DNA of 64,000 nucleotides from Eledone cirrhosa (taxonomy: Eukaryota): positions 24,988 to 88,987 of the forward strand of contig CAXHJY010001261.1 of assembly GCA_964016885.1 (NCBI GenBank). The letters run 5' to 3'. Both the position numbers and the translations under genes were made by a program. The notes under the pieces are model-generated. The model was given only the letters and a program-made list of their open reading frames with translations, was not told the origin of the DNA and made no database searches. Below, in pieces: positions 29,301-64,000 of the stretch; within the stretch, counting starts at the first letter, position 1; every line of letters begins with the position of its first letter.

Positions 29301-32300
29301 GAACTCAGAAAGCAGAAAGTTATAACCAAGTTATAACAGTCCAAAGCATTTTACCTGGTGCTCTAACAATTCTGCCATTCCACTGCCCTCAAACACCATA
29401 TTAGTAATGAGAAAGTTAGCTATATTATCATATCCCTACCACCACCAAATGCAGTATTATCTTAAAAATGATTTCAAAAACATTGGTAATGTTTTCATTA
29501 AAAATATGGTAATGAAAGCATAGAGTTCGATTAACAAGATCCCAGACCTCATTTGCTTACAGAGTGAGGATGTAACTTGTCAAATCAGAGCAAGGAAACA
29601 ATGTTTTCATTGATTTTTCAATTACTGATACTATCTACCAGTTGTAATAACTCCTGGCAGAATGAAAGGGTTAGAGGCTGTAAATATATACCACAACAAA
29701 AGCATTACAATTCTTTAATTTTTTATACGAGGTGTGTCAGAAAAGTAATAGGACTAAATGTGCTGTGAGCGGGGTAGGGATTAGCGGGTTGTGTCACTGT
29801 GTGACCTAATATCCAAGGAGTATCTGACTGCAATCTCAGTACCTTGCAGCCATTGTATTTTTTCAAGTGCTTTTGTTAACAGCTCCTTAATGTTAGGCAG
29901 TCAAGTGTTGGGCACAAAGCAGTGAACCAACTTGAAGTTTCTGGTCTGGGGCTGATTTAATCAACTTAGCCCTTCCCTAAATTTGCTAGCCCTCTACCTA
30001 AATTAGAAATCAATATTCCAGTGCTGATGTTGCCAATATGGCATGCTGTAGCAGTAATTTACATTGCTAGTCTGTCGAGATTTTAAGTCAGGTTACATAT
30101 GGAGGCAATACAGTAGCAGTAACAAGACATATGGATCATCAACTCATCATATGGTCACCTGGTTTGGCTTTCATCATTCTCCTTCCTAATGGGATCCAGT
30201 TCATAACACATACTGACAGCTTGGGGGGAATGTGAGTATCCCCACTCCTGCCTGTACTGTCATTTCCAGCGCCACACCTGACTAGTAGAGTTTCCATCTG
30301 CCATCCAAATCTACTAGCTTTCATCATTGTGGGAAGAAAGCCTTGAGCAACATGCTCGACAATCTTCTTAATATTATTAGCTGCTCTAAAGGGCTCTGTT
30401 ACAGCCACTGCTTAATATTATTGTATGTATGAACCTGTAACTCCCGATGGAGCTGTAGTGGTCCAAAATGTCATACAACATTTCTTAAGCATTTTTTAAA
30501 CCTGGCAGAGTCCATGCCCTCTCCAAATCTGAATACAGCCTATTTCTTCCAGAGAAGGAGAGTGATAGAGAGAATTGAGAAAGATATATAGAGTAAGAAA
30601 CGATCCCAGTACTGGACTCCTACTCTTTTTTTTATCAACAGGATTTGAACTCAGAGAGCAAAGAGTTATACCATACAGTATTCTATCTGGCATTCTAGTG
30701 ACTCTTCCAATTTGCTGCCTTGCTTAAGGTTATTAGCTTCTTTAAAAAGCGCTGTTACACCATCTGTTTAATGTTATCAGAAGCTCTAAAAAGGTGTTAC
30801 ATCCTGTTTAATTAGCAGCTCTAAAAAGCTGTCTTGAAGTGATCACAGATTTTCATTGTAGAAACAAAACCTTATTGCAAGCCCAATTGTAATTTTTCCA
30901 CTCATTTTAAAACTTTACAATTATATATAATTACTGCACTCCAGCTGTTATTCAATCACATGTCTATATCACTTCATAAACCCATCATTTTCTCCATTTT
31001 AATGTAAGAAGACAAGAAACATCAGAATCTATTAAAGATGACAGGCGAGAAACACACCTGAGTAATAAGAATTATTGAAATACCTAACGTTTATGTATAT
31101 GATTAAACACAATTAAGGTGGCAAACAAATTTGCCTATATCTAAACATTAGAAAACAGATGCACCTGTGTAATTAAGATGACAAGACTGATTGATACACT
31201 TGAGAATTATGGTCAGGTCACACCCAAGTTTAATTAAAATGGCAGATGTACCTGGCTCTAATTAAAGTGCTACATATATATGAGCCTCATTAACATGATA
31301 TATATTTGAAAACAATTAAAATGACAGCTGCATACAAGAATTTAACAAGAGTAATTAAGACCCATACACCTGAATCTAATTAAAGCTTCAGAGTTTATTT
31401 TATATATATATATATATATATATATATATATATAGCTACGGCTTACTAAATGTTTATTTATAAACATACCATATTTCTTTAGAAGTATGAAATTCCAATA
31501 CATATCTGTATAACAGCTATGCTCAAAGCTAAATTCTAATTCTATTCTATTATAAGTTAAGTCAACTTATACAGCTTCATATGCAAATGAGATTAATCGC
31601 CTCATTTACACAGACGAGAATACGCAAGAGTGGGAGGGATCGTCCTGATGAGAAGCAGTTCAGTTCGAAATGCATCGCCAATTGTCCCCCTTGCTTCTGT
31701 TGGACACCACCGGGTGGCGATAGCTGCTGGTGTTTTTGCATAGCTACGGCTTTCATTTTTCATTTTCATTTCATTTTACGTCCGCTTTTTCCCTGCTTGC
31801 AAGGGTGGGACGGGAACTGATTCTGGCTTGATTTCTACAGCTGGATGCCTTTCCTAACACCAACCTCATTTACAGTGAGTGCTGGGTGCTTTTTTGTCGT
31901 GGCACCTCCACGACCACTTTGCAGTGGAATGATAAGGATCCCAGTCCCTATCATCTCATTTCTACAGCTGAGTAAACTGGAGCAATGTGAAATAAAGTGT
32001 CTTGCTCAAGGAAACAACACATCACCCGGTCTGAGAATTGAACTCACAACCTTTCGATTGCAAGGCCAATGCTCTAACCACTAAACCATGTGCCTCCATA
32101 AATGTTTATTTCTAAATGTTTATTTATAAACATACATTGTTTCTTTAGAAATATGAAATTCCAATATATATATAGAAGGACTACCCTCTTCCTGCTATAT
32201 CAAGCGTTAACCTAATATATACCTTCCATATACTGTACCTATTGTGTTGTTATTTCTGTTTACCTTTTACACACACACACATATGTATATATATATATAT

Positions 32301-62660: not shown

Positions 62661-64000
62661 TATGTATATATATATAATATATATATAATATATATATAAT
62701 ATAATATAATATAATATAAAATAATATATATAATTTCGTTTCTGAATTTGTTTAGCAAGATTCTTTATCTGAATATATATAATATATATAATATAAATAA
62801 TATATATAATATAATATATATATAATATAATATATATATAATATAATATATATAATATAATATATATAATATAATATAATATAATATATATATAATATAA
62901 TATATATATAATATAATATATATATAATATAATATATATATAATATAATATATATATAATATAATATATATATAATATAATATATATATAATATAATATA
63001 TATATAATATAATATATATAATATAATATATATAATATATATAATATAATATATATAATATAATATAATATAATATAATATAATATATATAATATATATA
63101 TATTATATATATATATAATATATATAATATAATATATATAATATATATATATTATATATATATATAATAATATATATTATATAATATATATAATATATAT
63201 ATATAATATATATATATAATATATATAATATATATATATATATAATATATATATATAATATATATAATATATATATATATAATATATATATAATATATAT
63301 ATATAATATATATATATAATATATATCATATATATATATATATAATATATATATATAATATATATAATATATATATATATATAATATATATATAATATAT
63401 ATATATAATATATATATATATAATATATATATAATATATATATATAATATATATATATAATATATATAATATATATATATAATATATATATATAATATAT
63501 ATAATATATATATATATAATATATATAATATATATATAATATATATATATAATATATATAATATATATATAATATATATATATAATATATATATATAATA
63601 TATATATATAATATATATATATAATATATATATATAATATATATATATAATATATATATATAATATATATATATAATATATATATATAATATATATATAT
63701 AATATATATATATAATATATATATATAATATATATATAATATATAAATATATAATATATATATAATATATATATATATAATATATATATAATATATATAA
63801 TATATATATAATATATATATATATAATATATATAATATATATATAATATATATATAATATATATATACTATATATATATATAATATATATATATATAATA
63901 TATATATATATAATATATATATATAATATATATAATATATATATATAATATATATATAATATATATATATAATATATATATAATATATATATATAATATA
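62661..64000. repeat. Almost pure A/T satellite (TA/TAA mixture) to the window end
   Basis: Directly visible. Confidence 0.95.

Follow-up and report, generated by a model that had tools for sequence, protein, structure and literature searches.

Hammerhead cassettes in (TA)n tracts of the Eledone cirrhosa genome and their probable origin from Hydra-type Penelope-like elements

Hammerhead cassettes in the window

The window, the whole stretch of 64,000 nucleotides of Eledone cirrhosa that was analysed (positions 24,988 to 88,987 of contig CAXHJY010001261.1), consists of animal DNA rich in repeats, its contig being 89 kb long and the assembly 3.0 Gb. It carries a series of short cassettes with hammerhead-shaped motifs, assigned here to families A to J. 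The leftmost is an old and decayed cassette of family F (31435..31754, plus strand; core at 31645), with a stem III of AUGCAU and a predicted cut after 31676, which was later broken up by another repeat. Family A, a non-coding 635-bp unit, is present as a plus-strand copy split in two by a LINE. Its 5' piece (40447..40500) matches the A unit at 98%, and the remainder (44085..44737) holds a type I hammerhead at 44410-44489 with an 8-bp stem III and a predicted cut after 44483. The LINE itself (40501..44084, minus strand), which we take to be of the RTE type, has a 1040-aa ORF with an APE endonuclease, an RT and a PHD, and is not a Penelope-like element (PLE). A tRNA-headed unit without a hammerhead occupies 45230-45590, and is followed by two head-to-tail, 5'-truncated ends of family B (45764..46471, plus strand; cores at 45783 and 46211), a non-coding 887-bp unit whose stem II measures 84 nt.

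The remaining cassettes lie closer together. The plus-strand fragment of family G (56078..56161, core at 56098) is truncated before stem I', and that of family H (56254..56392, plus strand; core at 56304) is a short-end pLTR fragment of an autonomous Hydra-type PLE. Family C is represented by a tailed 3' UTR/pLTR fragment (57385..57889, plus strand) whose hammerhead at 57693-57763 has the stem III AUGCGCAU, and family D by an inverted pair of pLTR ends (58173..58733), one with a tail (core at 58510, minus strand) and the other a short end (core at 58533, plus strand). The family D hammerhead combines the core CUGAAGA with a 118-nt stem II and the stem III ACGAUCGU. Two arms of family J flank a (TA)n tract at 60193..60665; the plus arm consists of the 3' half only, and the minus arm includes a complete U3-A8 variant of the hammerhead (60545-60447, core UUGAAAA at 60538). 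A family I hammerhead (60720..60816, plus strand; core at 60726) and a tailed pLTR end of family E (62431..62663, minus strand) complete the series, the latter with a hammerhead at 62590-62526 that has the stem III AUAUGUAU and a long distal stem I.

These hammerhead-shaped motifs are real and occur well above chance. A strict type I descriptor found four motifs in the 64 kb with stem I of at least 5 bp and five with stem I of at least 4 bp, compared with dinucleotide-shuffle means of 0.0-0.04 and a maximum of 1 (100 shuffles per setting), so that the shuffle comparison proposed in the first-pass annotation came out in its favour. With relaxed settings seven matches were obtained (44416, 46211, 57701, 58510, 58533, 62582 and a doubtful one at 36781), the last of which was rejected for want of a palindromic stem or family support. 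Neither descriptor matched anything before position 31,430. All 45 CUGANGA sites of the window were also read individually. The ten cores named in the first-pass annotation are all present, starting at 31645, 44416, 45783, 46211, 56098, 56304, 57701 and 58533 on the plus strand and at 58510 and 62582 on the minus strand; two of its coordinates, 58367 and 62528, mark the 3' ends of minus-strand motifs. This reading, together with one palindrome, added the hammerheads at 60726(+) and 60538(-), for a total of 12 in 31 kb, and the other CUGANGA sites were rejected for lack of stems. The core of CUGANGA, GAAA and UH, arranged with its three stems as in type I, is intact in A, the second B end, C, both D ends, E and I. 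The damaged copies are those of F, the first B end (45783, stem I mismatched), H (56304, a substitution in stem I) and G (56098, no stem I'), the last three of which belong to families with intact hammerheads elsewhere in the genome. Single-sequence folding z-scores were weak for most of the eight motifs folded (-3.2 to +1.1). An Rfam comparison, which the first-pass annotation had proposed, gave 430 matches, and among the 150 of these that were listed, mostly TA-repeat miRNA models, no hammerhead model appeared.

Copies, parent elements and insertion sites

The cassettes proved to be multi-copy across the genome, with 16 to 30,316 exact matches for eight families and two for F. Copy numbers were taken as exact-pattern matches in the own genome, and are therefore lower bounds, although an element is counted once for each of its two ends; reversed patterns gave 0 matches in the same genome. 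By this measure there are 23,463 copies of C (57701), 17,550 of E (62582), 6,871 of D (58510/58533), 738 of H (56304), 90 of A (44416), 39 of B (45783/46211) and 16 of G (56098), while family J has 30,316 copies of its 3' half and 6,041 of its 5' core pattern. For family F (31645), exact 22-mers occur twice, the window copy included. The family counts sum to approximately 55,000-79,000, or 2-3 per 100 kb, again as lower bounds. At least five or six Hydra-type families, with tens of thousands of ends, are present in this genome. The flanks of 179 fetched loci, which are biased to TA-rich insertion sites, contained 53 further canonical cores in 398 kb with the seed masked, compared with 0-1 in five shuffles, which amounts to 13 cores per 100 kb. 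The density that the first-pass annotation found unusual, at about ten cores in 31 kb, is indeed high and exceeds both figures, but would be explained by clustering, as expected where elements enter the same TA tracts. A short, near-palindromic stem III, described in that annotation for most cassettes, recurs in 44 of the 53 bystander cores and in several families, although 44416 has a true 8-bp stem III. A UUGANAA descriptor applied to the same flanks gave four matches against 0-6 in shuffles; family J accordingly rests on its copies and not on that scan.

The first-pass annotation saw no Penelope RT or GIY-YIG ORF in the window, and this holds: tblastn of the window was blank, and the contig sequence on either side of it (10 kb and 1 kb) gave no PLE ORF. 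ORFs were instead sought elsewhere in the genome, in regions chosen by the spacing of hammerhead pairs 3-10 kb apart, and the link to Penelope pLTRs that the annotation proposed is borne out there. Complete elements have the layout pLTR-ORF-pLTR, with the hammerhead inside the pLTR. For family C, an ORF or part of one was found in 9/10 fetched regions, L056 and L064 having unbroken ORFs of 821 and 808 aa, and the window fragment matches the pLTRs of L058 and L064. Family D has an ORF in 8/10 fetched regions; in one of them (L131) an 830-aa ORF lies between two direct hammerhead repeats, and the window arms are 96-98% identical to its pLTRs. All eight fetched regions of family H contain an ORF, unbroken in four at 844-873 aa. 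In L182 the 873-aa ORF lies between two pLTRs, to each of which the window fragment is 96% identical. Split Hydra-type ORFs lie upstream of family E in 4/6 regions (L124-L127). For family J, an ORF lies upstream in the right orientation in 4/20 long regions and 3/12 short loci, including a 710-aa Hydra-type ORF in L237, and a Hydra-like N-terminus, of which 33 aa are seen, follows the pLTR of family I in L071. Spans from hammerhead to hammerhead are approximately 3.3-3.7 kb in C, 4.5-5.2 kb in H and 7.1 kb in D, the length above 3 kb being extra 3' UTR. Overall, the window fragments of C, D, E, H and J are 79-98% identical to ends of elements that carry an ORF. Judged by these alignments, the five cassettes at 57701, 58510/58533, 56304, 62582 and 60538 are truncated 3' ends (pLTRs) of autonomous elements, and 60726 is probably a sixth, the pLTR of a further Hydra family.

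The ORFs of the autonomous families encode proteins of approximately 700-870 aa, and the four compared share 35-46% identity. The motifs RW[RT], DKT, YRDD, CxCX5C, Y[IF]GxT, CxxC and CxH are present in 4/4 ORFs examined, and the family E fragments show the CxCX5C linker. Pfam matched the ORFs to neither an RT nor a GIY-YIG domain. A total of 118 homologues was found, and a profile of 81 sequences searched against the PDB had a retron RT as its only clear match (E 0.0014). The model of the family D protein (pLDDT 85.6) has a confidently folded C-terminal domain and a telomerase RT as its best Foldseek match (E 3.3e-9); no GIY-YIG entry was among the Foldseek matches listed for it. Families C, D, H and J each have a single ORF with a telomerase-like RT, the fold being that of the family D protein. 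A putative C-terminal GIY-YIG endonuclease is called on Y[IF]GxT and the other motifs, since neither the profile nor any Foldseek match listed named this fold. By their motifs, pLTRs, tails and TA targets, families C, D, H and J, and in part E and I, are assigned to the Hydra clade of PLEs.

The anatomy of the insertions is uniform in several respects. Copies of C, D, E, H, J and G end downstream of the hammerhead at two fixed points approximately 80-140 nt apart, those of B end mainly at one 3' point before TA, and 5' ends are variable. Inverted pairs of short copies, in which one arm is tailed and the other short, are common, and that at 58173-58733 is an example. Of 177 loci, 165 have a TA-like tract no more than 400 nt downstream, compared with 22% and 49% in two controls, as the TA targeting proposed for the cassettes would predict. 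Several window copies are damaged. The two pLTR stretches are identical over 170/170 positions in L131 and in L182, which indicates that some insertions are young; those of L181 differ, with an ungapped match of 145/170.

Taken together, the cassettes are best explained, with a probability of about 0.9, as 5'-truncated 3' ends of several Hydra-type Penelope-like families inserted in (TA)n, accompanied by two non-coding units. Each end would carry a type I hammerhead for which RNA cleavage is predicted, in most cases by the dimeric form. If the anole element PAc is a guide, the C-terminal endonuclease would nick TA-rich DNA, and the RT would use the nick to prime synthesis from either of two internal positions on uncut RNA, giving short and tail ends (PMC11167929). 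In the data reported for PAc, AT-rich DNA is nicked, two internal priming sites on the RNA account for the tail signature, uncut RNA is the main template, and hammerhead cleavage is protein-assisted and dispensable in vitro (PMC11167929). The families described here have in common with this Anolis Poseidon element the two fixed 3' ends, the AT-rich targets and a pLTR hammerhead near the ORF start, although PAc belongs to another PLE clade and the mechanism measured in vitro there is inferred here (PMC11167929). The insertions in Eledone span the predicted cut site, in agreement with uncut RNA as the main template. The RT may usually stop early or switch template, leaving fragments of 100-800 bp, and repeated entry into the same TA tracts would then build up clusters such as that of the window. 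A likely role of the ribozyme is to trim read-through transcripts at some stage, and insertion may not require it.

Ribozyme folds and their possible roles

Covariation was counted in the E type, in which 45 of 48 sequences were used after three near-identical rows were left out. Within this set 94.5% of cells pair, and 11 pairs, seven of the nine in stem II among them, change on both sides, compared with 5.4 +/- 1.4 in shuffles. These counts are inflated by relatedness and by the pattern used to select the sequences, which held the core and stem III constant. The stem covariation by which the first-pass annotation proposed to judge the motifs is thus supported for this type. Family I, with 12 distinct copies in the fetched loci, shows covariation in stem I. 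In C, D and intact B, stem III can form no hairpin, and self-duplexes near -10 kcal/mol are predicted for it; that of A is predicted to form its own hairpin, and those of E, H and F to be weak as hairpin or duplex. In C, D and B unusual bases occupy the base of stem II. The first 100 listed of the 6,041 family J cores, counted by hand, comprise 75 with U3-A8, 23 with C3/A8, two with U3/G8 and none with C3-G8, and N7 takes all four bases. Stems II and III of family J share sequence, so that a competing hairpin over GAAA is predicted, which wins in the predicted fold. The C3/A8 form of this family can also be read in another register.

Intact copies, which are predicted to be self-cutting, rather likely do cleave. 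A possible though less probable reading is that selection maintains the hammerhead folds for protein binding or priming and that cleavage is rare or absent, the elements still being Hydra PLEs. Such a role would accommodate the unusual stem II bases of C, D and B, the competing hairpin of J and the dispersal of mismatched C3/A8 cores, and has a precedent in the anole PLE, whose ribozyme mutants insert normally in vitro and whose cleavage needs protein (PMC11167929). Conservation of the core bases beside a freely variable N7 argues against it, as do the palindromic stem III maintained across unrelated families and the pairing of U3 with A8 in three quarters of the J cores counted, a covariation known from PLE hammerheads (PMC4209133).

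Non-coding units and relation to known elements

The first-pass annotation regarded all cassettes as non-autonomous; this description fails for the five that are ends of ORF-bearing elements, and stands for A and B, which look non-coding. The longest Met-ORF is 31 aa in the 635-bp period of A and 64 aa in the 887-bp period of B. Both occur as truncated or partial-tandem copies, mostly single, and a true unit tandem with two hammerheads was found at 1 of 25 loci for A and 1 of 30 for B. Family G has an intact stem I and hammerhead elsewhere in the family and two 3' ends, with no linked ORF in 15 loci, and family F has relatives approximately 70% identical (L157, L142), with no ORF found. The window copies at 56098 and 31645 belong to old families. 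Hydra-like matches near A, B and G loci were rejected as ORFs of these families and are treated as neighbouring insertions, since their positions fall beyond the region of family homology or their strand is the opposite one. When A, B, F, G and the tRNA-like unit were compared with six autonomous references, G and the tRNA-like unit gave short low-complexity matches at most, and F, A and B none. With no sequence common to A, B, G, F and these references, dependence on a Hydra enzyme is inferred from insertion signatures. A and B are likely non-coding, retrozyme-like units moved by the same Hydra-type enzymes. A sequencing-run search with the A unit listed no RNA run, and two runs at a share of 0.30, a result with no bearing on circles.

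A and B resemble animal non-LTR retrozymes in being non-coding, in having one type I hammerhead and in their partial tandems, and a dependence on PLEs is probable for both by analogy (PMC7229834; bioRxiv 10.64898/2026.07.22.740005). They differ from the retrozymes described there in unit size, 635 and 887 bp versus approximately 220-400 bp, and in being mostly single truncated copies where non-LTR retrozymes form arrays. The broader proposal that all cassettes are independent, non-autonomous retrozymes moving as circular RNAs draws on this resemblance (PMC7229834) and on the predominance of short copies in every family, and is improbable, given the 79-98% matches of the C, D, E, H and J fragments to ends of ORF-bearing elements and the rarity of true two-hammerhead tandems. 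An origin of the motifs by chance or through misassembly, as fold-back palindromes, was suggested by the TA-rich, unplaced contig, in which near-perfect inverted duplications abound, and by the lack of an Rfam hammerhead among the matches listed. It was rejected on the near-zero shuffle controls and because contigs of chromosome scale hold thousands of copies whose inverted layout and asymmetric ends are the same, inverted truncated copies being a described PLE feature (PMC8557442).

As truncated ends of Hydra-type PLEs, the cassettes belong to a kind of element already published, octopus included, and are therefore not a surprise; these families are further members, unusually abundant and with diverse ribozymes. 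The Hydra clade of C-terminal EN+ PLEs was described as having these motifs together with canonical hammerheads and a preference for (TA)n, and includes Hydra-1_Obim from Octopus bimaculoides (Craig et al. 2021, PMC8557442). Common to that description and the families here are the single ORF, RW[K/R/T] (RWR or RWT in place of RWK in the four ORFs examined), DKT, the CxCX5C linker, CxxC and CxH, as well as a pLTR hammerhead, insertion at (TA)n, tails, and inverted copies truncated at the 5' end (PMC8557442). The differences lie in elements of 3.3-7 kb compared with "generally <3 kb" (a tendency, and no strict criterion), and in tails of approximately 80-140 nt compared with 30-40 bp for Naiads and Penelope (PMC8557442). 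Stem III is often a loopless palindrome here, where the tabulated Hydra hammerheads mostly have a loop III of 1-3 nt, and stem II reaches 118 nt, where those tabulated are mostly short (PMC8557442). At least five or six families, four of them compared at 35-46% protein identity, and numbers of ends that reach tens of thousands are also unlike the Hydra clade as described (PMC8557442). The tabulated hammerhead of Hydra-1_Obim differs by eye from those of the window (PMC8557442).

Minimal PLE hammerheads have been described as dispersed and opposite-strand motifs, with dimers and low activity (Cervera and de la Pena 2014, PMC4209133). The families here share with them dispersed single motifs from truncated PLEs, the palindromic stem III, opposite-strand pairs 100-700 bp apart and many families per genome (PMC4209133). 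The U3-A8 core variant also occurs in Schistosoma PLE hammerheads, although here it is tied to Hydra-type ORFs and comes with a full stem III and a C3/A8 subfamily, unlike the variant described there (PMC4209133). The repeat annotation of O. vulgaris reports 31 recently active Penelope-like families, and its main text is without the words Hydra or ribozyme (PMC13282606). The literature searched, which covered few subscription journals, yielded no cephalopod hammerhead papers beyond Craig et al. and no study of a Hydra protein; a search on Penelope-moved tRNA-derived SINEs led to general papers, from which absence from print is not implied.

Intact young Hydra-type ORFs with identical pLTRs, in several families that each have a different hammerhead, are valuable as material that bears on the role of the hammerhead in the Penelope cycle and on (TA)n targeting. 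More tentatively, the bloom may be both large and recent, with many Hydra-type elements and, as a lower bound, more than 50,000 hammerhead-bearing ends, the ribozymes having diverged widely, as in the 118-nt stem II, the U3-A8 switch fold and the C3/A8 subfamily that spread. If so, which is rather doubtful, it would constitute a natural experiment in which hammerhead cleavage is dispensable or protein-rescued in vivo, with hammerhead-bearing non-coding units and a Penelope-dependent SINE, the tRNA-headed unit at 45230-45590, possibly using the same machinery. A large part of this genome's short, palindromic, TA-flanked DNA consists of PLE debris, which passes unflagged through the Pfam and Rfam scans used here.

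A tRNA-headed inverted unit

A TA-flanked inverted pair of a unit of ~280 bp with a tRNA-like head lies at 45230-45590. The head scored 42 bits to the Rfam tRNA model, and a tRNA-Ser was called by ARAGORN, at a relaxed threshold, in 14 of 15 loci. The genome holds 317 exact copies, and the copies include partial tandems and inverted junctions. The unit has two 3' ends, both of which precede (TA)n, and no hammerhead core was seen within it. Taken together, it looks like a SINE mobilised by the machinery of Penelope-like elements (PLEs).

Other TA-flanked and LINE-like pieces

A near-perfect inverted duplication at 44780-45205, also TA-flanked and lacking a hammerhead, gave a single weak match among the loci fetched from elsewhere in the genome. 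Copies of a short, TA-flanked inverted fragment (61015-61090 with 60935-60972) are held by nine fetched loci, and this fragment is possibly a further PLE end. On the minus strand, two LINE-like sequences were judged by eye, one with an internal piece duplicated (19000-22400 and 24090-24610) and the other degenerate (51830-53650).

Hammerhead families and PLE-like ORFs

Many copies of family J, the U3-A8 hammerhead variant, are tiny fold-backs (e.g. L226, L228, L229 and L232) that lack the 5' core because their turning point sits in the stem II loop; template switching may be favoured here by the repeated stem sequence. The 3' UTR of family D, whose window copy is the inverted pair of pLTR ends, extends ~4 kb (L131:3684-7800), is microsatellite-rich and recurs in several copies. 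Additional PLE-like ORFs occur in L128, L227 and L239, the first two of which are other Hydra-type families, and the fragment in L239 looks like another PLE clade, going by its motifs. The flanks of the fetched loci also contain many additional hammerhead families with different palindromic stems III, such as ACUAGU, ACGCGU, ACCGAUCGGU and ACUAAUUAGU.
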